IMG/VR virus record: IMGVR_UViG_3300024289_000512 | Location: 1 to 28,063 of that record | Length of the DNA stretch: 28,063 bases | From: a virus | Taxonomy: Duplodnaviria; Caudoviricetes | Strand: one strand, 5' to 3' | Notes under the pieces: model-generated | What the model was told of the DNA's origin: nothing | The model's database searches: none | Seen by the model: the letters and a program-made list of their open reading frames with translations, nothing else | In this document: one piece after another, positions 6,604 through 26,082 of the stretch | Layout of the letters: every line of letters starts with the position of its first letter | How positions within the stretch are numbered: position 1 is the stretch's first letter | Program-made: the position numbers and the translations under genes

Positions 6604-6613
6604 ACATTTTTCC

Positions 6614-8441: not shown

Positions 8442-8470
8442 ATTATACAGTCTATATATCAGTATGTCAA
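8442..8470 (-). promoter_or_regulatory. sigma70-type early promoter for the ligase operon
   Basis: TTGACA, 17 bp, TATAAT. Confidence 0.85.
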
Positions 8471-9222: not shown

Positions 9223-9246
9223 ACGGCTACCAATTATATACGCACT

Positions 9247-9837
9247 TTATGGGCGTTTTGTAACAATTTCGTCAACCAAGCCAAAATCAACAGCTTCTTG
9301 GGCACTCATAAAGTTGTCTCGTTCCATAGCTGCATAAAATTCGTCAAAAGTTTTACCCTTTGAATTATGATTAACATAAATCTGGGTAAGATTTTGCTTC
9401 ATTTTTAGGATCTCTTTTACTTGGATTTCCATGTCTGTTGCTTGCCCGCCAGCACCACCGCTAGGTTGGTGAATCATGTGACGTGCATTTGGAAGCATTT
9501 TACGTTTGCCAGGAGCACCTGCTTGGGCTAGTAGACTGCCCATACTGCAAGCCTGTCCCATTACAATAGTCGCAACGTCCGGACGAATAAACTGCATAGT
9601 ATCGTAGATTGCCATACCAGCGGTAACAACACCGCCAGGACTATTGATGAAAAAACTAATATCTTCATTGCCTTGACTCTCCAAAAATAAGAGCTGTGCT
9701 ACGATAAGACTAGCACTATGCTCGTTAACATCCGTGTCTAGCATAACGATACGGTCTTTTAATAGACGACTATAAATGTCGTAACTGCGTTCTCCACGAG
9801 CTTCTTGCTCAATTACCATTGGTACCAAATGTGGCAT
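9247..9837 (-). CDS. clpP: ATP-dependent Clp protease proteolytic subunit
   Basis: LVPMVIEQ...[21 protein letters not shown], and catalytic-triad motifs ACSMGS, MIHQP, ERDNFMS. Confidence 0.97.
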
Positions 9838-10495: not shown

Positions 10496-10496
10496 G

Positions 10497-11294: not shown

Positions 11295-11306
11295 GTTTGT
11301 GTGTCC

Positions 11307-11483: not shown

Positions 11484-11614
11484 GGATTTTCCTTTTTTAC
11501 TTCTTCTTTTTTACGTTCTATAGGAGGAGGAAAGTATGGCTCTATTACATAGTGGTTGGCACTCCACCAACCAAATGCTGTAACAAAGCCATAAAAGAAT
11601 ATCTCAAGGACCAT
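11480..11614 (-). CDS. 44-aa single-TM protein
   Basis: Missed by the ORF track. MVLEIFFYGFVTAFGWWSANHYVIEPYFPPPIERKKEEVKKENP; TAATG and ATGA overlaps on either side. Confidence 0.7.
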   Translation of the reverse strand: MVLEIFFYGFVTAFGWWSANHYVIEPYFPPPIERKKEEVKKENP

Positions 11615-12168: not shown

Positions 12169-12290
12169 TATTTTCCACTCATCTTTTCTTTAGTCCATTC
12201 AGCGGACGATTTGATATCCTGACCAACACCTGCTACTGTAGAGCAAGCGGTCAGGGCCAGTGCTACCATTAATGCAAATACTACTTTCAT
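12168..12290 (-). CDS. Entericidin EcnA/B-family small lipoprotein
   Basis: Missed by the ORF track. MKVVFALMVALALTAC-STVAGVGQDIKSSAEWTKEKMSGK matches the entericidin pattern C-x-T-x-x-G-x-G-x-D-I; SD AGGAG. Confidence 0.8.
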   Translation of the reverse strand: MKVVFALMVALALTACSTVAGVGQDIKSSAEWTKEKMSGK

Positions 12291-12415
12291 TTTGCCATCT
12301 CCTGACTCTGTGTTTTAACTGTGTCTACACCTTTGTCTAGCATACGAGCAATGCCGGAAAACCCAACAGTAGCTAGTACCAATCCAAAGATAGTGCCTGC
12401 GATAAATGCCTTCAT
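12287..12415 (-). CDS. 42-aa single-TM protein
   Basis: Missed by the ORF track. MKAFIAGTIFGLVLATVGFSGIARMLDKGVDTVKTQSQEMAK; SD GAGG, first gene after a promoter. Confidence 0.72.
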   Translation of the reverse strand: MKAFIAGTIFGLVLATVGFSGIARMLDKGVDTVKTQSQEMAK

Positions 12416-12450
12416 AAAGTTTGCCTCAATATGTTGTTAAACATGAGTAT

Positions 12451-12479
12451 ATTATATGTGAACTCAAGTCAAATGTCAA
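12451..12479 (-). promoter_or_regulatory. sigma70-type early promoter
   Basis: TTGACA, 17 bp, TATAAT. Confidence 0.85.
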
Positions 12480-12480
12480 G

Positions 12481-13005
12481 TCACCATTTGTCCACAACTG
12501 TCCAAAGTTCATCATTTTTGCATATGACTCCTTTGGAAAACTGTAAACGTCCATTGTTATAGCGTTCACTAAAGTATCGACATTTGGTTCCTTTGAACAT
12601 AAAGTAACCTTTTTTGGCTACAGTACCAAATTCTGTTTCCAAACCTTCGTCACCAATTCTCAAAGGACGATTTCGTTGTGCGCTTTCGCTACACACTAAC
12701 ATAGTTTCGGACTGGTACTTGCCGCCTAGTCGCATGTTCAATTCACTCAAACCATATTCAATGGCTTTTTGGCAACTAATCTCTGGATCTCCGTAGTCTT
12801 CGTGTGTCCAATTTACATTATGTTTTTCACCGTCGATTATAATGCTAAACTTAACTTGACACTTTTGGTTACTTTTGATTTTAACCAAATCGTCAATATT
12901 GCCCATTTTGCGATCAGCAGTAACTTTACTAACCTGACGCACTTGGCAGTCTTCAGCTAGTACTGTTTGACTAATCAATGCCAAAAGAATGAGAAGTTTT
13001 TTCAT
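12481..13005 (-). CDS. Secreted/periplasmic Cys-containing hypothetical protein
   Basis: Signal peptide MKKLLILLALISQTVLA; start at 13005 gives an ATGA overlap. Confidence 0.7.
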   Translation of the reverse strand: MKKLLILLALISQTVLAEDCQVRQVSKVTADRKMGNIDDLVKIKSNQKCQVKFSIIIDGEKHNVNWTHEDYGDPEISCQKAIEYGLSELNMRLGGKYQSETMLVCSESAQRNRPLRIGDEGLETEFGTVAKKGYFMFKGTKCRYFSERYNNGRLQFSKGVICKNDELWTVVDKW

Positions 13006-13256
13006 TGTTCGCAATTATAAACAAACCACCACATGTGTTCTTTGAGCAAGGCATTATATTGCCTGTCTATGGCAGATAATTGATCAGGGTCTTCGTTGAA
13101 GTTTTTTATTTGCTGAATTCGTTTAAGCTCTTTAAACTGCTCATTCTTTTGTTTGCAAGAAAGTTGCCAGTTTAAAAGTTGTTCGTAAGTGGGCACAGGT
13201 GCGCTGTTACTGCACCCTGCCACTGTTGCAATCAACAAAGTGATTAAAAGTCTCAT
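13002..13256 (-). CDS. Small lipoprotein
   Basis: MRLLITLLIATVAGC lipobox. Confidence 0.72.
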   Translation of the reverse strand: MRLLITLLIATVAGCSNSAPVPTYEQLLNWQLSCKQKNEQFKELKRIQQIKNFNEDPDQLSAIDRQYNALLKEHMWWFVYNCEQ

Positions 13257-13699
13257 TGAGCTTTGTCATTGAGTTCTACGTTAGACAACGCTGCAATAGT
13301 TTGGAATTTATCCCAAGCCATTTTTGCAGCAGGATTATTTTCTAGCTCGTCGTTCGGCAATACTGCTTCTAGCCAAATATAAGGCATACGTCGAGGATGG
13401 GCACCAAACTGGCGAGGTTGGTGGAATTTACCTTGTTCCCAAAGTTCAATACTGACACTACGGAAACGGTCTTCGTCTTCGTCTTTGTATTTGCCCCATT
13501 CAGGAAGACTGCCGCTGAACAATCCACGCATAGAGTGGGTATCGTTGCCACCGCCGTATCCTTGCCAAATACTCTGCCACTGTTTGTCATCTCGTGGGTC
13601 AAAATCGGTTCTGGCTATAATAATCAAAACATCATCGATGTCAACTACGCCTTCGACAATATCTCGAACGCAACGGCTGTAACTAAGACCAATTTTCAC
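13253..13699 (-). CDS. Phage hypothetical protein
   Basis: 148 aa, 4-bp overlaps at both ends. Confidence 0.75.
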   Translation of the reverse strand: MKIGLSYSRCVRDIVEGVVDIDDVLIIIARTDFDPRDDKQWQSIWQGYGGGNDTHSMRGLFSGSLPEWGKYKDEDEDRFRSVSIELWEQGKFHQPRQFGAHPRRMPYIWLEAVLPNDELENNPAAKMAWDKFQTIAALSNVELNDKAQ

Positions 13700-14019
13700 T
13701 TTATTTCCAATCTTACTTGTTTAATTGAATCCCATCGGAAACTCTTCCAATGTTTGTTTTCCAAATCATACACAGGGCAAACATCTTCATTTACCTTGCG
13801 CTCTTTCTTTTCTTTAGGAAAGTCTATTGGATTGTCTGTGTTAGTATAGTGTTTTTCTTCGGTTAAGTCAACTGGAACGAGTGACGGATTGGTTGTACAC
13901 TCCATCACACGTTCAGTACCGTCCTTTTTGGTAAAAATAACAGTCACAGGACCAAAAGCCAAATGAGATTTCAACCATTTTTTAAATAGTTTAAATTCTT
14001 TTTCACTCAGCGTTGACAT
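13696..14019 (-). CDS. WYL_2-like (Sm/SH3 beta-barrel) protein
   Basis: VIFTKKDGTERVMECT...VYDLENKHWKSFRWD motif. Confidence 0.75.
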   Translation of the reverse strand: MSTLSEKEFKLFKKWLKSHLAFGPVTVIFTKKDGTERVMECTTNPSLVPVDLTEEKHYTNTDNPIDFPKEKKERKVNEDVCPVYDLENKHWKSFRWDSIKQVRLEIK

Positions 14020-14173
14020 TTCCTGCTTCCAGTTCTTCTACACGATGACGCAAACGAATAATTTCTTGCTCTAGTCCTTCGATATGAGCCGCGACTTTAT
14101 CCATAAATTCAGCTGTGTTGTTGCCTGTAGTTCGCAACATGTCAACAACTGTTAGCTTTTTTTCCTCTGCCAT
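14003..14173 (-). CDS. 56-aa coiled-coil protein
   Basis: Missed by the ORF track. MAEEKKLTVVDMLRTTGNNTAEFMDKVAAHIEGLEQEIIRLRHRVEELEAGNVNAE; SD GGAGG. Confidence 0.75.
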   Translation of the reverse strand: MAEEKKLTVVDMLRTTGNNTAEFMDKVAAHIEGLEQEIIRLRHRVEELEAGNVNAE

Positions 14174-15025
14174 TTAAACCTCCAATAAAATATTAGGATT
14201 CCATCCTGTGTCTTCACTATAGCCATCGCTATGATAACCACGTGGGTTGCAAACAATGCGAGTTTCGCCAATCATGTAATCAAAACAGTGATGGGTGTGT
14301 CCGTGTGTCCACAGTTTGATCTGTGGCCGATCCAAAATAAACTCGCTCAAGTCGCTGTGGTAAGCACCGTTCATAATAGTTTCTGACTTATACGATTCAT
14401 GTACACTTTGGAAACTAGGACTATGGTGTCCAACTACAACAAACTTTTCATCATGACGTTCTGCTACTACAGTTTTGATGTAGTCAAGCATATGACGATG
14501 ACGAAAAACAGTATCAATGGGCTTAAGGTTAGTGTAACCTTCGGTTTCCTTTTTAATGATACGGAAGTCGTTCATCATGTCACGCACCGCATGAAGTGTC
14601 AGCGGATCGCCTTTGTTCATGTCAGTCCACAACGTTCCACCGATGAATGTTACATCGTCGATAGTCTTAGTACCTGCTTCTAAGAAGTAGACATTAGGAA
14701 ATTTAGCACATTCGTCTTCTAGGACTTTAAGTGTACGATTCCACTTGCCATGATAAAATTCGTGATTTCCGGCCACATAAATGGTATGTGGAAACTGGAA
14801 TGAACAACGCTTCAAAAAATCACGAAACGTTTGGACACGCTTTTGCTTACGGCCTAGTTCTGCGAACGAACCGTATTCGTAGATGCTAGGAACAACAGGA
14901 TGGTCGTAGAGATCCTCGGCGATCATAATGTCACCGCTAAGGATCAAAACGTCATAGTCATTGTCGTTTTGTATATTGATGTCACTGAACTCAAGATGGA
15001 GATCACTGACTAATTTGATACGCAT
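14174..15025 (-). CDS. Calcineurin-like metallophosphoesterase
   Basis: SDLH, SGD, AGNHE, GHH and HGHTH motifs. Confidence 0.92.
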   Translation of the reverse strand: MRIKLVSDLHLEFSDINIQNDNDYDVLILSGDIMIAEDLYDHPVVPSIYEYGSFAELGRKQKRVQTFRDFLKRCSFQFPHTIYVAGNHEFYHGKWNRTLKVLEDECAKFPNVYFLEAGTKTIDDVTFIGGTLWTDMNKGDPLTLHAVRDMMNDFRIIKKETEGYTNLKPIDTVFRHRHMLDYIKTVVAERHDEKFVVVGHHSPSFQSVHESYKSETIMNGAYHSDLSEFILDRPQIKLWTHGHTHHCFDYMIGETRIVCNPRGYHSDGYSEDTGWNPNILLEV

Positions 15026-15589
15026 TTAGTCCTCTGTTTCTATAAATGCCTGAGCGTCTTCTTTTGTTATACGTCCGGCTTTAACTTCCTCTAAAACATG
15101 ACGCAATGCTTCTTCAACGAATTCGTTAAAGGTCATATCACGATCATGTGCCATTTTCATGTATTTTAACAGATCTTCATCCGAAAAGTCAACCGGAACT
15201 TGTACACGGGTGTCATAGTCCTCGCCCGCTTTAATAGCTAGGCATTTTTGGATAAAGTCGTCGTCTACATCCAAATCTACATATTCAACATCATCCCATG
15301 CTTCATTTAAATTCACGCCTCGAGACTTTGCTTCTTTGTCGTGCTTCTTTTTGTATTCTGGATTAATAATGCGATATGCACGATCGTTAGTGTAGTCGCA
15401 AACTTCTACTTCATATACCCGTTGACTCTTAGTGCTAAACACAATATTGAAGCTGTAGCCGCCAGGACCGTTAACACCGTTCCAGCTACTCAGCTGATAG
15501 CTGTTTGAACCATAGCAACTCCAACCATAATCACCACCTTCAGTGATTTTATAGTCAACTAATTCCATCCATTCTTTCATTGTAATCAT
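15026..15589 (-). CDS. Phage hypothetical protein, possible C-terminal ribbon-helix-helix-like segment
   Basis: 187 aa; C-terminal VPVDFSDEDLLKYMKMAHDRDMTFNEFVEEAL. Confidence 0.7.
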   Translation of the reverse strand: MITMKEWMELVDYKITEGGDYGWSCYGSNSYQLSSWNGVNGPGGYSFNIVFSTKSQRVYEVEVCDYTNDRAYRIINPEYKKKHDKEAKSRGVNLNEAWDDVEYVDLDVDDDFIQKCLAIKAGEDYDTRVQVPVDFSDEDLLKYMKMAHDRDMTFNEFVEEALRHVLEEVKAGRITKEDAQAFIETED

Positions 15590-15759
15590 TTGTAAACCTT
15601 TGTATCAAAAATGATTAATGCACCTATGATAAGAAATAAAATTCCAGTCATAGTGTGACCAACACTAACATCAGCAAGTCCAGTAAGGACGTTTAAAACA
15701 CCAATTGTATAGCCAATTGGTTTGCGGTATCTATCAAATAATTCTACAAATTTGTTCAT
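15586..15759 (-). CDS. 57-aa two-TM membrane protein
   Basis: Missed by the ORF track. MNKFVELFDRYRKPIGYTIGVLNVLTGLADVSVGHTMTGILFLIIGALIIFDTKVYK; ATGA overlaps at both ends. Confidence 0.72.
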   Translation of the reverse strand: MNKFVELFDRYRKPIGYTIGVLNVLTGLADVSVGHTMTGILFLIIGALIIFDTKVYK

Positions 15760-16391
15760 TGTTCATATCCTTGTTTAAGTATTGCACGTTCTTGTTCCCA
15801 TTCAGCCATTTGTTTAGCTCGTTCTTGTTCACGCTTGTCTAAGCATGGTTGGCACATTGTTCGAACCCACCCATTATCACTGCTACGTTCGGCAGTATTA
15901 CCACATGATTCGCATGTACACCCACTCATGCTTTCGGCCATACGCACCATACCGTCAATGACATCATCACCGCCAGTGTAGTAAAACCGTAGTGTGCCAA
16001 ACTTTTCTTTAACTTGATCCAGCGTTACTTGAGGAATTTCTGGAGGAACTTCTTGTAACGGTTGAGTCATAAACTCTTCTGCACGTTGTTTAATGTAGTC
16101 TGCACTAATGCCTTTGTTAGCATATTCTTCGGCCATCAAGTCTGCAAACAATTCGGCATTACCTGATTGCCCCGCTTCACGGATTTTGTTGAATCTAATA
16201 ACAACTTCACGCTGACGGTTCCGCCAATCGATATGATGCTGTATATTACCCATGAGGTTATTAATGATGTTAAACCAACCATCACCGCAATCAAAACCCC
16301 AGCACATACAAGTTTCTGTCATGGGCTTATTACGATTAACCATCATCTTGGGATAGTTTTTACACAGTTGTTCGTCTAGTTCTTGTCTCAT
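15756..16391 (-). CDS. Phage hypothetical protein with C-terminal zinc ribbon
   Basis: CGDGWF, QVKEKFGTLRFY, CESCG...CQPC. Confidence 0.75.
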   Translation of the reverse strand: MRQELDEQLCKNYPKMMVNRNKPMTETCMCWGFDCGDGWFNIINNLMGNIQHHIDWRNRQREVVIRFNKIREAGQSGNAELFADLMAEEYANKGISADYIKQRAEEFMTQPLQEVPPEIPQVTLDQVKEKFGTLRFYYTGGDDVIDGMVRMAESMSGCTCESCGNTAERSSDNGWVRTMCQPCLDKREQERAKQMAEWEQERAILKQGYEQ

Positions 16392-16639
16392 TGTTCCTCC
16401 GGAACTTCTACGAAATCTTTAATAATTAGATCTAATGCTTCAATCCTACGGATATTACCTGCTACATCTTCTGGATGAAGCCAATAACCCGTAGGATTAC
16501 TTTCAGTTTTAGGATTCTTTTTCCATTTTTTCAATTCGCTTTTCAAATACGCTCTGTAGTCTCTAAGGTTAAGAGCAGTAATTCGATCAGCAGTTTCACC
16601 ATCGATCCATTGATGCGGTTTATGTTTAGACTTGCTCAT
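16388..16639 (-). CDS. Hypothetical protein
   Basis: 83 aa, ATGA overlaps at both ends. Confidence 0.7.
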   Translation of the reverse strand: MSKSKHKPHQWIDGETADRITALNLRDYRAYLKSELKKWKKNPKTESNPTGYWLHPEDVAGNIRRIEALDLIIKDFVEVPEEQ

Positions 16640-17322
16640 TGCGCTACCTTTACATAATTAAGCCTAGTTACATCATTTTCGTGTTTCCAATGTTTATGAT
16701 AACCTTTTACTTTGGCTTTGACAATGACTGCTGGACCAATTTCAAGATTAGTCTTACTGACCCAAGCGGCCATTTTGTTGTTAATTATAGCATCAATATT
16801 AAATCCTTCAAAGTTTTTTGACTTAACTGATGAAATAATTTCTGCATCCAAATCTTTAATCCAAGTGTCTATGTCTGCCAAATGGCCTTCATCGACACTC
16901 TTTGCAGCTTTTTTAACTTTGGTTTGTGCAACATCTCGAATCTGAACACTAGGCAAACAGGCAACATAACCAAATTGATTTTGCTTTACAGTTTCACCAT
17001 TCAAAATGGTATTCACATTGGTTTGGAAATCGTTTTCGCCTTCGATAGCTCCAAACATGAATTTTCGAAAATGCTTTTTGACATCCTCTGCCCTAGTAAT
17101 ATCCTCTTCGGTTATTTTAAGTGGCATAGGTGCATCCTTAGGATCAGCAGTCCAGATTGCAGGATCCAGGGTGCAGAGCATGAGAAGTTTATTTGAGTGT
17201 TTGGTAAACAGAAACTTACCGTCTTCTGCCCAAATATTTTCATTTTCTTTGATATATGCGCCATTAATCCGTTGAGCTGCACAAGCCAGCTCAAGAACTT
17301 GTTGGGTTGGGTACTCTTTCAT
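16636..17322 (-). CDS. Hypothetical protein, possible C-terminal OB-like fold
   Basis: Start moved to ATG 17322, because the track's TTG at 17382 is the -35 box of the promoter. Confidence 0.7.
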   Translation of the reverse strand: MKEYPTQQVLELACAAQRINGAYIKENENIWAEDGKFLFTKHSNKLLMLCTLDPAIWTADPKDAPMPLKITEEDITRAEDVKKHFRKFMFGAIEGENDFQTNVNTILNGETVKQNQFGYVACLPSVQIRDVAQTKVKKAAKSVDEGHLADIDTWIKDLDAEIISSVKSKNFEGFNIDAIINNKMAAWVSKTNLEIGPAVIVKAKVKGYHKHWKHENDVTRLNYVKVAQ

Positions 17323-17353
17323 GTCGCTCTCTGGGTGAGTTAATATACTGTGT

Positions 17354-17382
17354 ATTTTACATGAAAATGAAGTCAGTGTCAA
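17354..17382 (-). promoter_or_regulatory. sigma70-type early promoter
   Basis: TTGACA, 17 bp, TAAAAT. Confidence 0.75.
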
Positions 17383-18022
17383 CCTTCTTTAGTCGTACAT
17401 AGACTTTTTTGATTAGCTGTTTTATAACAGGATCATTTTGGTTTGGGAATTCACCTTTATACATGCCCAAACAAGGACTGGCATATTGGTTATGAAATCT
17501 CAGCCTGCTTAGTGTTTCTACATTGTGCAGATAGCGGAGTGCTCGTGTCTTGCCTAAACTACGGCAAAGTTCTATTGCAATAGAAATAGAGTAAGCATCT
17601 ATTTCTTCAGGATCTGCCAAATACTCTTTGTGTTCAGGACCTCGTTCAACACCTAATTTAAATTTACGTTTTCGATATTGCCTTTGGTGCCGCAATTCAT
17701 GAACAACAGTATCGAAAATCTGTATTAGTAATTCTGTAGAATGTTTTGGGAACCAAACGTGATCTTTTGGAAAGTTATGAGTAATAACTAGTTCGATGCA
17801 AACATCACCTTCTTCATCATCTACTGGGTCGTAGTATCCGTTGGCATAAAACACTTCGGATAATAAATTCTTGTCTCGACGAGTTTTAACTTTAAGTTCA
17901 ATATCGTTGAGTCTGAATTCTTTTCGAACTTGGTTGAGCAACTTTTGGAAACTTAGGCCTGATTTTGTGCTAGATCTTATTGAATTGCATATAGCACAAA
18001 TAGTTTCCATTACGCTGTTCAT
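17357..18022 (-). CDS. HExxH zincin-like putative metallopeptidase (paralogue B)
   Basis: HELRHQRQYRKR...YLADPEEIDAYS. Confidence 0.6.
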   Translation of the reverse strand: MNSVMETICAICNSIRSSTKSGLSFQKLLNQVRKEFRLNDIELKVKTRRDKNLLSEVFYANGYYDPVDDEEGDVCIELVITHNFPKDHVWFPKHSTELLIQIFDTVVHELRHQRQYRKRKFKLGVERGPEHKEYLADPEEIDAYSISIAIELCRSLGKTRALRYLHNVETLSRLRFHNQYASPCLGMYKGEFPNQNDPVIKQLIKKVYVRLKKVDTDFIFM

Positions 18023-18024
18023 AG

Positions 18025-18243
18025 TTACAACCTATAAGTTACCCTACCTTTTGTTAAATCATAAGGGCTAACTTCAATTTTAACCGAGTCCCCTAAAATG
18101 ATTCTTATCTTGTGTTGCTTTAATTTTCCGCCCATATAACAAAGTAAAGTATTAGGCATGTTATCTACCTTAACTCTAAACATGTTTCCGGGTAGTACTT
18201 CGTCAACTTGTCCAACTAGTTCAATAATATCGTCTTTTGCCAT
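18025..18243 (-). CDS. infA: Translation initiation factor IF-1
   Basis: 72 aa, MAKDDIIE...G.V.E.LP...FRV...GKLKQHKIRIILGDSVKIEVSPYDLTKGRVTYR. Confidence 0.96.
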   Translation of the reverse strand: MAKDDIIELVGQVDEVLPGNMFRVKVDNMPNTLLCYMGGKLKQHKIRIILGDSVKIEVSPYDLTKGRVTYRL

Positions 18244-18422
18244 TATACTTTGGTGACGACGATTTTACCGTCTTCAACTTTAATATCCAATGTGTCTCCT
18301 TCTTTCCAGCCTGTAAGTTCTAAAACTTCATCTGGAAATTTCATCATAACATTATCAGGATCTCCAGGAATTTCCTGAAAAATATCCTCTGCTGTAAAAA
18401 TAAATTTTTCGTTTTGTTCCAT
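18243..18422 (-). CDS. AbrB/MazE-like swapped-hairpin protein (59 aa)
   Basis: Missed by the ORF track. ...NVMMKFPDEVLELTGWKEGDTLDIKVEDGKIVVTKV; TAATG overlap with infA. Confidence 0.75.
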   Translation of the reverse strand: MEQNEKFIFTAEDIFQEIPGDPDNVMMKFPDEVLELTGWKEGDTLDIKVEDGKIVVTKV

Positions 18423-18428
18423 AGGTTG

Positions 18429-18436
18429 TATTTAAC
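18429..18436 (-). promoter_or_regulatory. Late-like box (GTTAAATA)
   Basis: TAAATA core in a 20-bp intergenic gap, 6 nt before an SD-less ATG. Confidence 0.5.
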
Positions 18437-18442
18437 TATAAA

Positions 18443-18838
18443 TTAGTTGTCTTCGTATGGTACTGGAAACCAACCTAGTCTGTCAAGATCTGTGGCAATC
18501 TCATCTGTAATAGTTCCTTCTGGTACGTATTTCTTTGCGGCCATATAACGATCGCCTTCTTCCAGATCATAAGTAGCAAGTCCGCCCATGCCACTACAAT
18601 ACCAATCCATATAGTCGCCACCTTGGTTTCTAAGACGTGCTACAATGCCGCCGGCGCCGCGCCAACTGGCATGCCATAAATCTTTATCTCGGTCTTGTCT
18701 AATAGCAGGCCACAATTCTTTTGGGCACCATTGCATATTACACCATGCCGCATATAAATTTTGAGCATAGTCGTCCCGAGACCGAATCTTGTTTAAGATT
18801 TCGGCGTCTCGATAAATGTCTTCAACTAAATCCCTCAA
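18443..18838 (-). CDS. Phage hypothetical protein
   Basis: 131 aa; YAQNLYAAWCN...SWRGAGG...DYMDWYCSG. Confidence 0.75.
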   Translation of the reverse strand: MRDLVEDIYRDAEILNKIRSRDDYAQNLYAAWCNMQWCPKELWPAIRQDRDKDLWHASWRGAGGIVARLRNQGGDYMDWYCSGMGGLATYDLEEGDRYMAAKKYVPEGTITDEIATDLDRLGWFPVPYEDN

Positions 18839-19149
18839 TGGTATGCACCTCTAAAACAATGCAGAACTTCGTGTCCTAAATTATGAATACTTGCCATTTT
18901 TGGAGTGTAAATTACACATTCTTTGCCCTCCCAAAATGAACAGGCTTGAACATCAAAACGCCATACTTTACCACCGCGTTTTTTATTTTCGGCAGCACAT
19001 GCCGCATTGACGTCTTTGACTACAACCCATTTTAGATGAACTTGTGATACTTCATTTTGAGTTACGTCAAATTTTGAATCTGGATCTTGCCAGTTCCATG
19101 CCCAAGCGGTATTAGCAATAAGTAGTAAACCAAAAAGTGCCTTTTTCAT
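18835..19149 (-). CDS. Small secreted protein with HExxH motif
   Basis: Signal peptide MKKALFGLLLIANTAWA; GHEVLHC; SD GAGG. Confidence 0.7.
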   Translation of the reverse strand: MKKALFGLLLIANTAWAWNWQDPDSKFDVTQNEVSQVHLKWVVVKDVNAACAAENKKRGGKVWRFDVQACSFWEGKECVIYTPKMASIHNLGHEVLHCFRGAYH

Positions 19150-19173
19150 CTGTGCCTCTGTGTGTTGTTAATA

Positions 19174-19286
19174 TGGTGTAGACGGTAGGATTCGAACCTA
19201 CAAAGCCGTCATATTGACTAGGCCCAGGCCCCCTGTGGCCGTTCGTTACACCACAGGGGAGGTCTACCAATTCCACTCACGTCTAC
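19174..19286 (-). ncRNA. 113-nt tRNA-like RNA with non-canonical anticodon arm
   Basis: Acceptor stem GTAGACG/CGTCTAC plus A-CCA; D-loop GGAATTGGTAGA; T-arm GTAGG-TTCGAAT-CCTAC; long variable arm; 10-bp stem with 12-nt loop in the anticodon position. Confidence 0.85.
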
Positions 19287-19292
19287 TTGCAT

Positions 19293-19321
19293 AGTATATA
19301 TTCAATTCTGGGCAAAGTCAA
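19293..19321 (-). promoter_or_regulatory. sigma70-type promoter for the tRNA-like RNA
   Basis: TTGACT, 17 bp, TATACT; G1 of the RNA is 7 nt after the -10. Confidence 0.8.
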
Positions 19322-19348
19322 GTTATTTTGGTACCCGTATAAACTACA

Positions 19349-19356
19349 GTTAAATA
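19349..19356 (+). promoter_or_regulatory. Late-like box (GTTAAATA) for the radical SAM cluster
   Basis: Identical 8-mer and identical 6-nt spacing to the ATG as at 18429-18436. Confidence 0.5.
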
Positions 19357-19362
19357 TCAGTA

Positions 19363-20331
19363 ATGAATTTTAACCAAATACCTTTTGAAAATATTGTTCG
19401 TTTTGGACAGAGAACTATGTTGGACCGACCACTATTTTCTGTGAGTTGGATACTCGGACGTTTTTGTAATTATAATTGCAGCTACTGTTGGCCTTATGCA
19501 CGAAGTGATAGTGTTGACCATCGAACACTGGAAGTCTACACTTCTGTAGTTGATGAAATAAAACGACAAGCAAGAGCTAATGGTTTTAACGAATTTCACT
19601 GGAGTTTTAGTGGCGGAGAGCCAACTGCTTATAAAAATCTTTTGGATCTAGTACAGCACTTGGACGAAAAAGAAAGTTCGTACCAAAGTATCCATATGAC
19701 TACTAATTTAAGTCCAGGAAGCAAATGGTGGAAAACTTGGTGTGATAAAACAGGACTGTTACAACGTAGAAGTATAACTGCCAGCTTCCACGACGAGTTC
19801 GCTAAAGAACAAGAGTTTGGCGATAAGTGTTTACAGTTACAATACGAACTAGTTCATGTTACTATTAACCAAGTAATGGTTCCTGAAAAGTTTTATGAAC
19901 TGTATGAGCGTATGGAACGTTTCCATAAACGTGGAATTAATGTAACTCTTAAACCACAAAGTGATCCAACTGCTAGTCATATAGTAGACGGATATACCGA
20001 TGACATGATTAAACTAATGCAAGAAGGATTCCCACAAAAGTCGCAAGGAGAAGAAGTTTATCAAATTCGCCTAAATGACGGAGTGAAAGACTACTACTTT
20101 GACCAAGCAGAAAGATTTAATGCTTTTGGATTTAATAAATTTCAAAATTGGACTTGCAATAGTGGTTATCAAAGTGTTATAATTAGAGGTAACGAAGTTA
20201 AGCGTAGTTACAGTTGCCATGACGAACCGTTAGGTACACTAGAACACTTTGAATTATTTAAGGAACCTAGACGCTGTATTACACCTACTTGTGTAAGCTC
20301 AGCGGATAGTAAAATACCAAAATGCAAATAG
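19363..20331 (+). CDS. Radical SAM protein with C-terminal Cys (twitch-like) domain
   Basis: CNYNCSYC and FSGGEPT; C-terminal CNSG...SC...C-x-x-x-x-C. Confidence 0.9.
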   Translation: MNFNQIPFENIVRFGQRTMLDRPLFSVSWILGRFCNYNCSYCWPYARSDSVDHRTLEVYTSVVDEIKRQARANGFNEFHWSFSGGEPTAYKNLLDLVQHLDEKESSYQSIHMTTNLSPGSKWWKTWCDKTGLLQRRSITASFHDEFAKEQEFGDKCLQLQYELVHVTINQVMVPEKFYELYERMERFHKRGINVTLKPQSDPTASHIVDGYTDDMIKLMQEGFPQKSQGEEVYQIRLNDGVKDYYFDQAERFNAFGFNKFQNWTCNSGYQSVIIRGNEVKRSYSCHDEPLGTLEHFELFKEPRRCITPTCVSSADSKIPKCK

Positions 20332-20939
20332 ACTTAGAACATTTACACTACTGGATGTGTGCCATTCGCGAAAGCAAAGATCCTATGCGTACTCTTGATG
20401 CTTTCTGGCAAGGGCAGTTAAAAAGTAAAGACTGGTTAATTGAAAACTTGGTCTATTACATCTACCCAGAACGTAACAAGGAATTAGACTTTCCAGTAAG
20501 TGTTGACATACACGGAGGTTGGGTAGGAGTTTTAGCCAGTATGTTGTTTCAATCTGATCTTCCTATCAGCAACATTCGTAGCGTTGATATAGATCCTAAC
20601 TGCGAGTCTGTTGCTACGATGATGAACAAAAAAGAAGAAATAGAAGGACGTTTTAGAGCAGTAACAGCTGATATGTGTACACTACGCAGTGATGCTGATA
20701 TTATTATCAATACCAGTTGCGAACACATTACACAAGATCAATATGATCTGTGGCTCAGTGGACATCCTCACAACAGTTTACTAGTTCTCCAGAGCAATAA
20801 TTACAACATTCCGGAGCACGTTAGAATTGCCAACGACTTAGAAGAATTCAAACAACAATGTCATGTCAAAGTGTTATGGGCAAGAGAACTAGTTTTACCT
20901 TTATACACAAGGTTTATGATTATAGGTCAAAATGTATAA
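20322..20939 (+). CDS. Class I SAM-dependent methyltransferase-like protein
   Basis: Gly-rich motif I VDIHGGWVG, acidic SVDID, TADM, IINTSCEH. Confidence 0.75.
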   Translation: MQIDLEHLHYWMCAIRESKDPMRTLDAFWQGQLKSKDWLIENLVYYIYPERNKELDFPVSVDIHGGWVGVLASMLFQSDLPISNIRSVDIDPNCESVATMMNKKEEIEGRFRAVTADMCTLRSDADIIINTSCEHITQDQYDLWLSGHPHNSLLVLQSNNYNIPEHVRIANDLEEFKQQCHVKVLWARELVLPLYTRFMIIGQNV

Positions 20940-21903
20940 TTTAAACCAAATCAAAACAGTTCATTTGGAAGTAACTAGCCGATGCCAGGCTACTTGTCCT
21001 ATGTGTGCAAGGAATATTCAAGGGTTAGATAATCCTTGGTTAGAATTAGATGAAATTACTCTTGATCAATTCAAACAATGGTTTCCTGTTGATTTTATAA
21101 AACAGTTAGATAGATTGTATATGTGTGGTAACTTAGGTGATCCTATTGTTGCAAAAGACACACTGAAGATTTTTCAATACTTAAGAGAAACAAATCCAAC
21201 TATTTCTTTAAGCATGAATACAAACGGCTCTGCAAAGAGTTGGCATTTCTGGAAAGGACTTGCTGGATTAAAAGTACATGTTCGATTTGGTATTGATGGG
21301 TTAATTGATACTCATAGTTTATATCGCATTGGTACAGACTGGGTAAAAATTATAGACAATGCTAGACTGTTTATTAATGCAGGAGGTGAAGCAACTTGGG
21401 ATATGCTGGTATTTGAACATAACGAGCACCAGGTAGAAATTTGTAGAGAATTAAGTGAACAGTTAGGTTTTAAAAACTTTGTATCTAAAAATACATCTCG
21501 TTTTAGAGAGGACAAGTTGCAGGTGCTAAACAAAGATGGCACAACTAGTCATGTATTATTTCCTTCTATTAAAAGCAAAAAAATATCTAAGTTACTTGGA
21601 ACAGACGAACCTGCAGAAATTTCCTGTAAAGTTTTGAATGAGAAAAGCATATACATTAATGCTAAAGGACAAGTGATTCCTTGTTGCTGGCTTGATTATA
21701 ATGCTATGTTGCCTATACACCCATCTCGAGTAGACATGTTGGATAAAGGTATTAAGTTTGAAACTTTAAAAGAAAAAACACTAGATGAAATTTTCGGTGA
21801 AAAAACATTTACCACTATTAGAGATAGCTGGGGTACTAGTCCAGTCCGCGAATGTAGTAGACAATGCGGAAAAATTGATAAATTCAATGAGCAGTTCAAT
21901 TAG
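20932..21903 (+). CDS. Radical SAM protein with C-terminal SPASM/twitch domain
   Basis: CQATCPMC, GNLGDP, NTNG; C-terminal C...GQVIPCC...CSRQC. Confidence 0.9.
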   Translation: MYNLNQIKTVHLEVTSRCQATCPMCARNIQGLDNPWLELDEITLDQFKQWFPVDFIKQLDRLYMCGNLGDPIVAKDTLKIFQYLRETNPTISLSMNTNGSAKSWHFWKGLAGLKVHVRFGIDGLIDTHSLYRIGTDWVKIIDNARLFINAGGEATWDMLVFEHNEHQVEICRELSEQLGFKNFVSKNTSRFREDKLQVLNKDGTTSHVLFPSIKSKKISKLLGTDEPAEISCKVLNEKSIYINAKGQVIPCCWLDYNAMLPIHPSRVDMLDKGIKFETLKEKTLDEIFGEKTFTTIRDSWGTSPVRECSRQCGKIDKFNEQFN

Positions 21904-21908
21904 GATAA

Positions 21909-22742
21909 ATGATGGAAACCGGAATAGTAAAATGGTACAATGATGCTAAAAAGTATGGCTTCATTACTGCCGACAAAGATAATGCAAACATCTACGCAGA
22001 ACGATGGGATATTAAAAATGATCCGCAAACTATGTTTGAATTGCAACGTGTAGAATTTGACAGGATTGAAACTGATACAGGTCTGAAAGCAATCAACATT
22101 AACGTTATTCAACTTGAAGAACATAAGATGCTAGAGCTTCCTCGTATTAGTGTTTTTGATAACTTATTAACTGCTGAGTTTTGTCAACGTTTAATAGAAA
22201 AACATTCTCAAGCAGGAATGAACCCTAACAGCGGTTATCAAAGCCGTGTTGAATCCTATGCACAAGTTACAGAAGAAGTAGAGGATCGGGGAATTAGTTT
22301 AGGAGTTGATCCTTACGATTACGATGTATTGGCAACAGCTATTGTGCAAGCCGCACGAATTCCTTATAGTCACATAGAAGCCATCGATGTATACAATTAC
22401 GAAACAGGACAGTTTCTTGCATACCATCATGATTACCCTTATGATCCAAGACAGATTAATTATTACAAGTACGGCGGTGACAGAGTAGGAACTGGAATAT
22501 TCTATCTAAATGACAATTTCAAAGGCGGCGAAACTTACTTTCCTAAACACAACGTAACTGTAAAACCAAAGACTGGCTCTTTCTTGTATTTTCAACAATG
22601 TTATGATGAAGCAACAAATTGGTCAACTATTCATGAAAGTACAAAAATAACTTCAGGCACTAAATGGATTGCCAGTTGCTTTTTTAGTGACAGACCTCGA
22701 GTAGGCTGGAGTCCAAGAGACCATTTGTATGATAATAAGTGA
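21909..22742 (+). CDS. Cold-shock domain fused to a prolyl-4-hydroxylase-like 2OG-Fe(II) oxygenase
   Basis: N-terminal GIVKWYNDAKKYGFIT (CSD RNP-1). C-terminal YHHD...YLND.F.GGETYFP...VKPKTGS...IHES...GTKW (HxD...H...K). Confidence 0.88.
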   Translation: MMETGIVKWYNDAKKYGFITADKDNANIYAERWDIKNDPQTMFELQRVEFDRIETDTGLKAININVIQLEEHKMLELPRISVFDNLLTAEFCQRLIEKHSQAGMNPNSGYQSRVESYAQVTEEVEDRGISLGVDPYDYDVLATAIVQAARIPYSHIEAIDVYNYETGQFLAYHHDYPYDPRQINYYKYGGDRVGTGIFYLNDNFKGGETYFPKHNVTVKPKTGSFLYFQQCYDEATNWSTIHESTKITSGTKWIASCFFSDRPRVGWSPRDHLYDNK

Positions 22743-23415
22743 TTGGAAACCTTTTTACAAATATGACAATGACGGTACTCCTAATTGCATGTCGCAACAA
22801 ACATATGAGCCGTTAATAAGTCCTGACGGAAAAACATTCTGCGCCAACTACGATTGGCAAAACAAATATCAACGTATGTGGCAACCCAATCGTGTTGGTT
22901 ACACAGACGAAGTTGTTGATTATTTTTTCTTTAAAGAAATAGAATATGCACAAAAGTTTAGTAATCGTTCATGGGCTCCTGAAATAGTTGATATAGACCG
23001 TGTGAGTAAACGAATATTTTATAAATGGTACGGACCAACTTGTAACGAAATACTCTATACAGGCAACGCACTTCCAAGCGATTGGAAACAACAAATTCGC
23101 AACATTATGATAGATGCATACTCTAGTGGAGTTTACAAACTTACTATGTATCCTCATTGTCATTTTTATGACAGTGATGGCAGGATGCATGCCATAGATA
23201 TGTACGGATGCGTAGAGGTCGATGATCCTTTTATTGAAGCCAAATACATGGATGGAATTATACATAGTACAGCTCAATTTAGATTAGATGAAACGGGTGA
23301 TTTAGTTAACGGTAAGTATAATTTAGAAACTATGTTTAAGCAATCACTTGGCGTACATGTTAAATGGGGCAAAGAAGATATGCGTTTTATATATGAGGAA
23401 ATGTTCAATGCCTAA
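22729..23415 (+). CDS. Divergent protein-kinase-like fold protein
   Basis: FKEIEY (alphaC Glu), WAPEIVD, SSGVYKLTMYPHC (catalytic-loop position), AIDMYG (DFG position). Confidence 0.5.
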   Translation: MIISDWKPFYKYDNDGTPNCMSQQTYEPLISPDGKTFCANYDWQNKYQRMWQPNRVGYTDEVVDYFFFKEIEYAQKFSNRSWAPEIVDIDRVSKRIFYKWYGPTCNEILYTGNALPSDWKQQIRNIMIDAYSSGVYKLTMYPHCHFYDSDGRMHAIDMYGCVEVDDPFIEAKYMDGIIHSTAQFRLDETGDLVNGKYNLETMFKQSLGVHVKWGKEDMRFIYEEMFNA

Positions 23416-23980
23416 AAGAGTTGGATCTACACTAGGATTAATTGACTGGGAAAAAGTTATAGCAGACATACAACCTCATGCCGGAGACTTTAATAGTGTG
23501 ACCAGCGTTGTAGACAGAAGTGAGGCTTCGGCAGTTGGTGATCAAGAATTATTAGGATCTTATAGAGAAGTTATTGGTACTTGGGAAAAAGCTGGCTACG
23601 ATTTAAAACAAATACAATGGTACGACTACTATCCCCAAGAACATTTTGATATAAGTGTGCAACAAGTATTTGAACAGATGTTTAACATTAAACCACGCAG
23701 GGTATTTGTTAGTGAAGTTATGCCAGGTCGTTGTGTGCCTTATCACTGGGATGTAGAAGATCACGAAAAAGAATGGTTAGCAGAAGGCGAACTTGTTCGC
23801 TATGTTTGTTTTATGGATAAGCCAAAATTTGGTCATGTTCTTATATTAGAAGATGAGTGTTTTTATAATGTTGAACAACACGAAATATATGAGTGGAATT
23901 GGTACAGGTCACATCATGCCGGCACTAACTGTGGATCAGAGCCATACTATCTATTTCATTTCTTAGGAACTAAAAAATGA
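23408..23980 (+). CDS. Asp/Asn beta-hydroxylase-like cupin oxygenase (copy 1)
   Basis: PGRCVPYHWD...HHAGTNCG; start moved to ATG 23408 (SD GAGGA). Confidence 0.75.
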   Translation: MPKRVGSTLGLIDWEKVIADIQPHAGDFNSVTSVVDRSEASAVGDQELLGSYREVIGTWEKAGYDLKQIQWYDYYPQEHFDISVQQVFEQMFNIKPRRVFVSEVMPGRCVPYHWDVEDHEKEWLAEGELVRYVCFMDKPKFGHVLILEDECFYNVEQHEIYEWNWYRSHHAGTNCGSEPYYLFHFLGTKK

Positions 23981-24486
23981 TTGAATTTGTAGGTATATGT
24001 CCAATAGCATGGCAAGCACTAATCCAACATCTTGAAAAACAGCAACCGTATGTCGGGCCTAAACACAAGGAAGGTGACGATATACCAGGTCTAAACGAAG
24101 TTACAGACTTATGGAAAAAAGCGGGGTATGGTCCAACAGTTAGTTGGGATATGTTTTATCCCGGAGATCATTTTGATATTAAAATAGTAGACAAGTTTGT
24201 TGAATGGGCAGGTATGGAGTCTTACACTAATGCGTGGGTTAGTCGAATTCATCCAGGTTACTTTGCTCCGCAACACTGGGATGTGCAGGATGACGAACCT
24301 TTACCAGACACTATTCGTTTTCATGTACATATGAGTCAACCACAGTTTGGACATATTTTTATAGCTGAGGATAAATGTTTATATAATCAGCATCAAGGAG
24401 CCACATACAAGTGGTCTAGTCGTAAGGCATGGCATGCAGGAACTAACTGTGGACTAGTTCCAAAATACATTTTTAATATTTGGTAA
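23977..24486 (+). CDS. Asp/Asn beta-hydroxylase-like cupin oxygenase (copy 2)
   Basis: PGYFAPQHWD...WHAGTNCG; ATGA overlap. Confidence 0.75.
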   Translation: MIEFVGICPIAWQALIQHLEKQQPYVGPKHKEGDDIPGLNEVTDLWKKAGYGPTVSWDMFYPGDHFDIKIVDKFVEWAGMESYTNAWVSRIHPGYFAPQHWDVQDDEPLPDTIRFHVHMSQPQFGHIFIAEDKCLYNQHQGATYKWSSRKAWHAGTNCGLVPKYIFNIW

Positions 24487-24490
24487 TATC

Positions 24491-24673
24491 ATGGAAGAAA
24501 AAGTAGTCATTACAGAACAATTTTATTTAGACAAGTTTATGGAAATTCAAAGGCAAAATGTAGTGTTGTCTAATTTGCTTAGAGATATTCATGCAGATTC
24601 ATATCTTAGAAAAGCAGTTGAACATAAATTAGGCTCTAGTGCATTTGATATTTTAAAAGATACGCCAGCCTAA
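24491..24673 (+). CDS. 60-aa hypothetical protein
   Basis: Fills the gap; TAATG-coupled to the next radical SAM gene. Confidence 0.7.
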   Translation: MEEKVVITEQFYLDKFMEIQRQNVVLSNLLRDIHADSYLRKAVEHKLGSSAFDILKDTPA

Positions 24674-26082
24674 TGAATAAAATTAAACAGTGGCAAGATA
24701 AAATTGAAACAGTTTCAGGAAGTAAAACTTTCTGCATACTACCATGGATACATTTTGCAACACGCCCTAACGGTGATATGAGATTGTGTTGTAGTGCAAA
24801 TGCCAGCGGCGCCGGAGAAGATCATACCGTTGGTTTAGTTAAAAACGAACGAGGAGTTCCAGCTAACTTTGGACGTGAAACTCCTATGAGCGCATGGAAC
24901 AACGAGTACATGCGAGATGTTCGTTTAACAATGTTAGAAGGTAAAATACCTGCCAGTTGTAGTAAATGTATTGCTGAAGAGTCTCGAGGTGTTGCCAGTA
25001 AACGCATTTGGGAAACAGGCTCTTGGATGGAAGAAGGTATTGATGTAGAAGAATTGATAGCTCAAACAGCAGAAGACGGTACTGTGCCAGAGAAGTTAGT
25101 TTATCTGGATCTTAGATTAGGTCATACTTGCAATTTAAAATGTGTTATGTGCAGTCCGCATGATAGTAGTCAATGGGTGGGCGAGCATAAAAAAATATAT
25201 CCTTTGTTTCAAGCAAAAGAACTTAAAGAACAAATGGCTTGGGACAGGAAAGATTTTAATAATTTCTGGCACGAGAATCCAGACTTCTGGAAAGAAATGT
25301 ATGCCCAGATTCCTAACCTAAAACAAGTATACTTTGCAGGCGGCGAACCTTTAATGATTAGAGAACATAAATGGTTCTTAGAAGAAATTATTAGACAAGG
25401 ATACGCAGATAAGATCCTTATTCGTTATAACACAAATGGATTATTAGTAGATGATGAAATTATCGAATTATGGAAGCAATTCAAAAAAGTTAAAGTCGGC
25501 TTTAGCATTGATGCTGTCGGTGACCGCAATTATTATATACGTTATCCTAGTGACTGGGATACTATCGTACGAAATCTTCACAAGCTGGACAACACTCCCG
25601 ACAACATCCAAGTTAGTATTGCCACTGCTATACAAATATTAAACATCAAACACTTGGCAGAGTTTGCTAAATGGAAAATAACACAAAACTTTAAGAAAGT
25701 AAATTTAGAAAATACTGTAGGTGGCATTCAAGCTGGTGGCGGCATTTTTAATATGCATCTCTTATACATACCAACATTTTTAAGTATTAGGCTATTACCA
25801 AAAGCAGACAAAGAAGAAGTGCGTAAGAGTTTTGGCGAACTTGCTAATTGGTTGCATACTAACTACAGACAAGATACTGATTTTTGGAAAAAGAATCCTT
25901 ATGGTTGGAAACGATGGCTAGCAGTATTAGATTTTATGGATGCCGAGGACCACACAGCCCAACTACCAGCATTTCGAGAATATATAACTACACTTGAAAA
26001 ATCAAGGGGAACAGATTTTAAATCTACGTTTCCTGAACTATCACACTTGCTAGATTATTCAGTCGAAGCTTCTTGTGTTTAA
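24673..26082 (+). CDS. Radical SAM protein with N-terminal twitch/SPASM-like domain
   Basis: N-terminal CILPW...G...LCC...CSKC; core CNLKCVMC, FAGGEPL, YNTNG. Confidence 0.9.
   Translation: MNKIKQWQDKIETVSGSKTFCILPWIHFATRPNGDMRLCCSANASGAGEDHTVGLVKNERGVPANFGRETPMSAWNNEYMRDVRLTMLEGKIPASCSKCIAEESRGVASKRIWETGSWMEEGIDVEELIAQTAEDGTVPEKLVYLDLRLGHTCNLKCVMCSPHDSSQWVGEHKKIYPLFQAKELKEQMAWDRKDFNNFWHENPDFWKEMYAQIPNLKQVYFAGGEPLMIREHKWFLEEIIRQGYADKILIRYNTNGLLVDDEIIELWKQFKKVKVGFSIDAVGDRNYYIRYPSDWDTIVRNLHKLDNTPDNIQVSIATAIQILNIKHLAEFAKWKITQNFKKVNLENTVGGIQAGGGIFNMHLLYIPTFLSIRLLPKADKEEVRKSFGELANWLHTNYRQDTDFWKKNPYGWKRWLAVLDFMDAEDHTAQLPAFREYITTLEKSRGTDFKSTFPELSHLLDYSVEASCV

Follow-up and report, generated by a model that had tools for sequence, protein, structure and literature searches.

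Class II tRNA-Leu (RF00005) and the non-proteinogenic tRNA-Gly of Staphylococcus aureus, whose altered 49-65 and 51-63 pairs escape the elongation factor EF-Tu (available part of PMC9976931), are the described RNAs that best frame the element studied here. It is a 113-nt anticodon-less tRNA-Leu-like RNA on the minus strand (19174-19286) of a 28,063-nt Caudoviricetes sequence, IMG/VR record IMGVR_UViG_3300024289_000512, which is called the window throughout; "family RNA" denotes this element and its relatives. Very probably it represents a real, conserved and apparently undescribed family of non-decoding tRNA-Leu mimics. By analogy, we propose that it may have been built from class II tRNA-Leu and may work most like the EF-Tu-avoiding staphylococcal donors. 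With class II tRNA-Leu the family shares the 7/5 branch, a Leu-type D-loop, A15-U48, A20a, A73, CCA and a long variable arm; the top canonical matches to our covariance model (R1, see below) are tRNA-Leu, and a phage tRNA-Leu(GAG) (locus L409) even has an extra D-stem base. Unlike class II tRNA-Leu, the family has no 5-bp/7-nt anticodon arm, a variable arm of about 8-9 bp with an N-U-A tip, an A51-U63 pair, and a predicted leaderless start. The trait shared with the S. aureus donors is an EF-Tu-weakening T-stem pair, in the family A51-U63 with a modest effect; however, those donors belong to the host, serve cell-wall synthesis and have a known acceptor, whereas the family is phage-encoded, Leu-type and anticodon-less.

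Other described RNAs share further traits with the family. T4 species 1 (rnaC) and species 2 (rnaD) are likewise phage-encoded, 119-139 nt long and located in a tRNA cluster, and rnaC has a T-arm and an acceptor-like end, but they possess no Leu-type D-arm and do not match R1 at E<=0.001, while T4 tRNA-Leu scores 38.3 bits. YrlA Y RNAs mimic the D-arm, T-arm and elbow of tRNA and occur in phages (accessible text of PMC4201824); they are permuted and carry a Ro60-binding module beside Ro60, whereas the family is co-linear with tRNA, has a free NCCA end, and TROVE was found in 0/5 records. The allo-tRNAs and irregular tRNAs have non-canonical cloverleaves, some charged yet outside translation and some near toxin-antitoxin genes, but in a comparison restricted to PMC5389517 outside its supplementary figures of irregular tRNAs, they have 8/4 or 9/3 branches and anticodons, as opposed to the 7/5 branch without anticodon seen here. 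With Rfam at an E-value threshold, only the tRNA-like ends of the window copy match, to tmRNA (RF00023), at 15.3 bits versus a cut-off of 47. Unlike tmRNA, the family possesses a D-stem, is free of a tag frame and of pseudoknots, and shows G3.U70 in only 6 of 214 copies (this set is a sample, and all counts over 214 hold among the matches listed). The jumbo phage G011 has a separate, permuted tmRNA gene (L603:11530-11935, minus strand).

The RNA family and its fold

The element quoted in an earlier note on the window, which was made from the letters alone, was recovered letter for letter from 19286 to 19174, with a 7-bp acceptor stem, a 5-bp T-stem, a TTCGAAT loop, A73 and an encoded CCA. The anticodon arm, described there as 10 bp with a 12-nt loop, does have the 12-nt loop, but its stem is 9 bp long because U25 closes the D-stem (A10-U25). 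No ordinary tRNA call had been expected, and neither default ARAGORN nor Rfam at gathering thresholds gave a match anywhere in the window. The folding z-score of the window RNA is -3.15, and none of 200 shuffles was equally stable. Its minimum-energy fold is an alternative D/T pairing (-46.1 versus -38.4 kcal/mol for the cloverleaf; T-stem probability 0.02). Since the plain energy model mispairs the D- and T-arms of the window copy, the cloverleaf rests on family covariation and on other members.

At least 214 distinct family RNAs of 101-119 nt were found in at least 447 partly redundant loci of viral and metagenome contigs. Thus, relatives carry the same odd RNA and not a normal tRNA to which the window would add a one-off insertion. 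About 290 IMG/VR stretches fit a stricter pattern and about 390 metagenome stretches a looser one, while five loci from the last two pattern scans remained unparsed. Eighty of 245 loci were fetched solely via the neighbouring radical SAM protein; 69 of them have >=300 nt upstream, and 58 of these 69 contain the RNA (57 by parser and L080 by separate inspection). Pattern scans of viral contigs and metagenomes extended the set beyond these radical-SAM-first loci. The covariance model R1, built from 74 copies, scored tested members at 80-108 bits (one divergent member at 57) and other long Leu-like RNAs at 52 or less; the best matches among ordinary tRNAs were tRNA-Leu. Each of five long records holds exactly one copy (5/5). 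Sequencing runs containing window DNA were freshwater or riverine.

Beyond viral and metagenome contigs, our searches found no copy. A scan of 185,579 prokaryotic genomes with a pattern that required TGAG and ACCA, and that divergent cellular copies could escape, yielded 67 matches, all by chance: 62 at ARAGORN-called ordinary tRNAs and five uncalled ones with only 1-5 acceptor pairs. Among cultured phages, blastn of three variants returned T-arm fragments of ordinary tRNAs or nothing. No described Rfam family covers the RNA at gathering level in the window and six other loci; in two records it scored 29.3 and 27.5 on RF00005 (cut-off 29), the former just passing. The family was not found described in the literature, the check extending to texts other than subscription papers, bioRxiv supplements and large supplementary viral-RNA lists. 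The word "phage" is absent from the available part of a review of non-canonical tRNAs (PMC7609411), and "anticodon-less" refers to Schlafen cleavage products in the available part of PMC13434031.

The 74-row alignment pairs in 95.0% of its cells, and 17 of 26 pairs change on both sides, although the 214 sequences share ancestry, which inflates covariation counts and means that invariant bases are not independent events. None of 500 shuffles reached the observed level and slid partners paired in 29-54%; MAFFT aligned the anticodon stem imperfectly, with 76% paired. The T-stem has P>0.5 in 153/214 copies, and the alternative D/T fold is predicted in 15/214. As a conserved switch this alternative fold was rejected: it is compatible with near-invariant columns, but its two helices show only one two-sided change, and it is predicted in 0/36 no-bulge copies. 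The 3' strand of the D-stem reads CCT in 177/214 and GCT in 37/214 copies, the latter with C12 and no bulge (G12-C23 to C12-G23).

The 7-bp acceptor, 5-bp T-stem, T-loop and NCCA end of a decoding tRNA-Leu are all present in the family, with a 7/5 branch in all parsed copies (the parser being blind to other branch types). Two arms lie between D and T in 197/214 copies, and they behave differently. At the anticodon position, 147 distinct sequences occur among 197 arms, with apical loops of 3-5 nt in 166/197, including UUCG- and GNRA-type caps; a 7-nt loop with U at position 2 is found in only 3/197, U at position 33 in just 14-15/99 copies, and a common anticodon is absent. The variable arm is more constant, with about 8-9 bp and an N-U-A triloop in 195/214, and its helix span varies less (standard deviation 2.8 nt versus 4.9 nt for the anticodon-position arm). 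Its lower stem is 98.9% paired with two-sided changes in 4/5 pairs, and its inner three pairs form in 99% of cells versus 59% with shuffled partners, under an anchor chosen to favour pairing. The family therefore lacks what a decoding tRNA requires, namely a 5-bp anticodon stem and a 7-nt loop with a Leu anticodon and U33. It agrees poorly with decoding and with intron removal alike, and the anticodon-position arm is best described as a freely varying hairpin, which supports the idea of a non-decoding tRNA-Leu-like mimic put forward in the earlier note.

Promoter, maturation and leucine identity

A sigma70-type promoter, TTGACT-17-TATACT (19321-19293), matches the consensus at 10 of 12 positions. 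On its own this site is no better than chance (1.9 expected in shuffles), but family members keep it at a fixed position. Counting ties, a distance of exactly 6 nt between the best -10 hexamer and nucleotide 1 is seen for 94 of 95 distinct upstreams, and a larger set gives 181/218 at 6 nt and 198/218 at 5-7 nt. Standard sigma70 geometry puts the transcription start at nucleotide 1, which is a purine in 212/214 copies, and the leaderless start at G1 that had been suspected for the window is thereby supported. The same holds for the lack of a terminator: none was found after the window copy, and no terminator-like site was seen within 70 nt downstream of 208 family copies. The first 8 nt of the trailer are 82% AT. 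CCA is encoded in 201/214 copies, and ACCA is present in 96/102 of a metagenome set selected on neither A73 nor CCA. Eight of the 13 copies without CCA directly precede tRNA-Ser(GCT), which suggests normal tRNA 3' maturation.

Metatranscriptome contigs hint weakly at expression. In three of six RNA runs they contain the unspliced RNA together with downstream genes, the other three having no near-identical contig across the arm, and no splice joint across the arm was seen in the assembled contigs of the six, so that the intron removal considered in the earlier note finds no support there. Two RNA contigs end at 19276 and 19266 and thus miss +1 by 10 and 20 nt; DNA contigs continue beyond these points. 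These data are assembled contigs in which strand, ends and level are not readable; all six runs are riverine and from 2018, possibly one campaign, and the compared DNA runs are possibly the window's own source.

In Escherichia coli, leucine identity resides in A73, A15-U48, G18G19 and A20a, while the anticodon and variable arms are dispensable (available part of PMC9976931). This set for leucyl-tRNA synthetase (LeuRS), together with CCA and A51-U63, is present in 27/27 copies fetched via the neighbouring protein with the RNA sequence unselected, in line with the Leu-like A73 and D-loop noted earlier for the window. In a rough parse of five host phage records, the set occurs in 17/18 tRNA-Leu and 18/148 other tRNAs, with 4/170 tRNAs unparsed. 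By contrast, A51-U63 is found in 93/93 family copies, collected with patterns that left these positions free, as in the 27/27, versus 0/18 phage tRNA-Leu.

The three-pair T-stem model (Tables 1-3 of PMC3239215, seen in part) predicts a real but modest difference in EF-Tu affinity. Calculated binding of 99 family T-stems is -9.4 to -9.6 kcal/mol versus -9.8 to -10.8 for 13 of 14 computable phage tRNA-Leu, so that the family RNA would bind about 0.9 kcal/mol more weakly, and none of the 99 copies reaches the Leu-class affinity of about -10.3 kcal/mol. Short tRNA-Leu of 77-78 nt without a long variable arm occur in several of the phages (L602:13121-17315, L408, L409), and in the complete 383-kb record G011, L602:13121-17315 contains four tRNA-Leu, all of them short. 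These genes would agree with a host LeuRS indifferent to the arm.

Genomic neighbourhood and other unusual RNAs

The window (Table 1) encodes radical SAM enzymes, IF-1, ClpP, DNA ligase and a metallophosphatase, and its ClpP matches various proteobacteria at only 60-62% in a host search. In G001, a 345-kb relative (94% complete) that carries the RNA, the capsid, portal and terminase genes are of T4 type, and there are 30 tRNA matches.

Table 1. Coordinates of the RNA, its promoter, neighbouring genes and related phage RNAs (positions in the window unless a locus is named)
Feature	Position	Strand	Evidence
Anticodon-less tRNA-Leu-like RNA, whole gene, 113 nt	19174..19286	-	Family model R1: 101.3 bits; best non-family RNA 51.8
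Acceptor stem 5' strand, pairs with 19184-19178	19280..19286	-	Two-sided changes in 6/7 pairs
Leu-type D-arm: A10-U25, G11-C24, bulged U, G12-C23, A14 A15, G18 G19, A20a	19260..19277	-	Motif in 27/27 unselected copies
Elongated "anticodon" arm, here 9 bp + 12-nt loop, hypervariable, non-decoding	19230..19259	-	147 distinct arms/197 two-armed folds
Long variable arm: G45 + 3-nt linker, 5 bp, 2-nt bulge, 4 bp, N-U-A triloop	19203..19229	-	
U48 + T-arm with G49-C65, U50-A64, A51-U63	19185..19202	-	U48 in 214/214
Discriminator A73 + encoded CCA	19174..19177	-	A73 214/214, CCA 201/214
Sigma70-type -35 hexamer TTGACT	19316..19321	-	T-35 90, T-34 94, G-33 87 of 95 distinct upstreams
Sigma70-type -10 hexamer TATACT	19293..19298	-	6 nt before G1; predicts start at nucleotide 1, no 5' leader
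Divergent radical SAM gene, often but not always the neighbour	19363..20331	+	PF04055; adjacent in 60/78 RNA-first loci
104-aa open reading frame (ORF) directly downstream, likely co-transcribed, separate from RNA	18835..19149	-	No Pfam hit; relatives follow only subtype A (25/27 loci)
AbrB/MazE-like gene + IF-1, downstream of RNA	18025-18422	-	Kept in 26-27/27 subtype-A loci
ClpP, relevant to proposed N-degron use	9247..9837	-	PF00574, E 2.7e-75
tRNA-Leu(UAA) anticodon-insert genes	L270:118-235(-), L288:1490-1606(+), L310:1501-1616(-), L330:115-235(-), L352:227-349(-), L372:290-408(+)		
Other long Leu-like phage RNAs	L276/L322/L340, L296, L304, L308, L313, L318, L339, L343, L364, L368, L376, L383		

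The earlier note had considered the RNA a dedicated partner of the radical SAM cluster or a stabilising element of one operon, and neither idea is supported by the distribution of its neighbours. A radical SAM ortholog is not adjacent in 18/78 RNA-first loci, and the RNA is absent at 11/69 radical-SAM-first loci; among five (fragmentary) records where it does not lie beside the radical SAM gene, two hold it elsewhere. Moreover, two RNA subtypes precede two unrelated gene sets. Subtype A is followed by the 104-aa ORF, the AbrB/MazE-like gene and IF-1 (25-27/27 loci), subtype B by an Hc1 histone-like gene and others (29/30 loci), and 20/209 copies directly precede a tRNA (15/209 a tRNA-Ser(GCT)). 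Because the neighbours are interchangeable in this way, the RNA is a self-contained gene rather than a cis-acting part of a single operon or the enzyme island. The 104-aa ORF is likely co-transcribed with the RNA since no terminator separates them; it has a hydrophobic N-terminus and an HEVLH (HExxH) motif.

The enzyme island (19363-28062 and 3327-4703) comprises six radical SAM genes (five plus one), a fusion of a cold-shock domain with a 2-oxoglutarate (2OG) oxygenase, and uncharacterised ORFs. A TAAATA motif, which we take to be T4 late-promoter-like, stands just before its first gene. Islands of radical SAM and oxygenase genes also harbour a stand-alone 151-aa ATE_C-like protein (L604:1345-1797, plus strand; L040:8209-8646; Pfam E 1.4e-4, below cut-off), whose family is large in viruses (an Atlas cluster of 3698 members) and which is possibly an aminoacyl-tRNA-dependent tailoring enzyme. 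As a consumer of the RNA it was rejected, being found at two loci only and not in the window, with the RNA near 1/80 loci of its family, the query's own.

The tRNA clusters of the phages hold further peculiarities. Ordinary Leu tRNAs are present in all four records whose clusters were read. CUA-anticodon (amber-reading) tRNA genes, labelled "Pyl" by ARAGORN, occur in L408 (G004) and at L330:1043-1118, and tRNA-Tyr was not called in the stretches read of the G001 and G004 clusters (L401, L402, L408, L410), where most other isotypes are present. Small-RNA families with CAGCAA stems, some with T-loop-like cargo, lie among the tRNAs and run up to a DUF2828/DUF7788 gene (L401:13661-13953, L408, L409, L602:10208-19456, minus strand). 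The DUF2828/DUF7788 protein had no sequence match in PDB, and its structure model has a mean pLDDT of 48. It was rejected as a partner of the family RNA: the CAGCAA motif occurs in 0/214 family members, and G002 (80% complete) has the RNA but neither such a protein nor CAGCAA stems in its tRNA cluster. Two further groups of long tRNA-Leu-like genes were encountered (Table 1). Some phage tRNA-Leu(UAA) genes contain an insert of about 30-37 nt (a hairpin of about 10 bp) inside the anticodon; these inserts look like mini-introns, as their removal would give a canonical tRNA. Other phage RNAs of 102-125 nt combine a Leu-type D-arm, a 7/5 branch and A73-CCA with non-canonical middles, many of them with A51-U63. 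Because they score only 32-52 bits on R1, we regard them as separate lineages, possibly convergent.

Candidate functions

Based on sequence evidence, we tentatively favour the view that the family RNA is a leucylated, translation-excluded Leu donor for the host leucyl/phenylalanyl-tRNA protein transferase (L/F-transferase), feeding the phage-encoded ClpS/ClpP. The host sigma70 polymerase would start at G1 with no need for RNase P, the AU-rich trailer would be cut and trimmed back to CCA, and LeuRS would charge the RNA with leucine; the long arm would then bar ribosomal decoding and the T-stem lower EF-Tu capture. Taken jointly, these four steps are probable. A weak EF-Tu hold combined with no decoding would leave the RNA available to non-ribosomal enzymes. 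The last step, in which leucine passes to the transferase and N-degrons arise on proteins of the host or the phage, is the weak link. In its fullest form, i.e. a purpose-built aminoacyl carrier, EF-Tu-detuned and anticodon-stripped, that supplies a host N-terminal transferase so that phage ClpS-Clp destroys chosen proteins, the proposal is doubtful.

The proposal starts from direct observations: the RNA has the described fold and has lost its anticodon loop, its promoter stands at a fixed distance, it carries the Leu identity bases and A51-U63, it is single-copy, and the phages have clpS and clpP genes. The E. coli L/F-transferase ignores the anticodon and the variable loop, prefers G3:C70 over C3:G70 and loses to EF-Tu (available part of PMC4105747). 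In the family, position 3-70 is G3-C70 in 151, A3-U70 in 57, G3.U70 in 6 and C3-G70 in 0 of 214 copies, and C3 is found in 12/18 phage tRNA-Leu. ClpS is encoded in 8/10 long RNA-carrying records; judging from coordinates, both records without it end before the syntenic position. G001 also has genes for a ClpA/ClpB-like ATPase and for ClpP, and its ClpS can be aligned to the degron-binding NDD motif and His of ClpS proteins of solved structure. A near-complete protein quality-control set was noted, with ClpS (L404:2175-2474), the ClpA/B-like ATPase (L397:10512-12785), ClpP (L400:3620-4207), DnaK, DnaJ and Hsp20.

Several points weigh against a donor function, besides the shared ancestry of the sequences. 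EF-Tu binding would fall only modestly, by about 4-5-fold, to the level of ordinary tRNA-Phe bodies (-9.4 kcal/mol), and the junction of the variable arm (a 4-nt 5' linker) is unlike canonical tRNA-Leu and could hinder LeuRS. The window copy has A3-U70, not G3:C70, the second E. coli L/F-transferase determinant, A4:U69, occurs in only 21/214 copies, and the C72, A4:U69 and C68 set of a preferred substrate does not characterise the family. The transferase domain PF03588 was found in 0/10 RNA-carrying records and PF04377, below cut-off, in 1/5 records; a host Aat or Bpt is an assumption of the model. ClpS can act on primary degrons without a transferase. The ClpS count covers RNA-carrying records only. 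One RNA contig (X15) extends past +1 to 19385, and the conserved length and N-U-A tip of the variable arm are left unexplained.

Ranked close behind, and held with somewhat less confidence, is an early decoy or competitive inhibitor for defences that hit the acceptor end, elbow or variable arm of tRNAs (Septu/retron PtuAB, aminoacyl-tRNA acetyltransferases, CCA-modifying toxins). A leaderless, EF-Tu-poor and non-decoding RNA could be sacrificed without harm to translation. Variable-loop-cutting Septu and retron-Eco7 provide a precedent (available part of PMC13096335), the variable arm is the constrained accessory part of the molecule, and 15/209 copies directly precede the likewise long-armed tRNA-Ser(GCT); a decoy would explain both the conserved tip and the early, host-type promoter with its start at nucleotide 1. 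However, the cited nucleases target tRNA-Tyr and not tRNA-Leu, an arm of about 8-9 bp is far longer than the natural Leu arm to be imitated, and the phages already have 27-40 ordinary tRNA genes usable as decoys. A decoy for anticodon nucleases, as the earlier note had suggested, is unlikely, because the anticodon loop itself is lost.

An unlikely role is that of a regulator or scaffold, in which the variable-arm tip would bind a phage or host protein, or an uncharged look-alike would modulate LeuRS or the stringent response. The variable arm, constant in length and with a conserved tip, resembles a protein-binding handle and the single copy is retained after relocation, but no partner gene co-locates. 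The best candidate, the DUF2828/DUF7788 protein of the tRNA cluster, comes with separate CAGCAA-stem RNAs, and aminoacyl-tRNA synthetases, SmpB, RtcB and TROVE gave no match in 298 scanned ORFs of G001. Quite improbable is a cis-acting 5' module whose stable tRNA fold protects the early transcript or marks a processing site for a downstream mRNA or tRNA operon. The RNA is always first in its transcription unit, with no terminator-like site and an AT-rich trailer, and RNA contigs join it to downstream ORFs; however, the downstream content is interchangeable, and such a module has no need for an invariant A73, A51-U63 or variable-arm tip.

An intron-containing tRNA spliced to a decoding form is largely refuted and very improbable. 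ARAGORN with intron and pseudogene options does force calls on many copies, but these scatter over at least 11 isotypes among the matches listed, U33 is rare, there is no common anticodon, and removal of an insert restores no conserved canonical loop; the contigs of the six RNA runs contain no joints, and the true anticodon-insert tRNA-Leu(UAA) genes of other phages look different and keep canonical-loop flanks. A decaying, functionless tRNA-Leu pseudogene, which could be tolerated where ordinary Leu tRNAs make decoding by this RNA dispensable, is already refuted by covariation (compensatory change in 17/26 pairs), the fixed promoter offset and the retention of one copy in each of five long records and after moving, and is hardly conceivable.

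Default ARAGORN and Rfam gathering thresholds overlook the gene in the window, yet it is single-copy across a large, T4-like lineage of freshwater jumbo phages. As a decoy, it would constitute an RNA counter-defence against tRNA-targeting immunity. As a leucine donor, it would be a virus-supplied cofactor RNA for protein degradation and would address how L/F-transferase can compete with EF-Tu; how aminoacyl-tRNA reaches non-ribosomal transferases despite EF-Tu is a stated open question (available part of PMC4105747). With either function, the RNA may offer a ready scaffold for orthogonal, non-decoding aminoacyl carriers, and the conserved bases of the family may be read as an instruction set: charge with leucine, avoid EF-Tu, and present a fixed hairpin tip.

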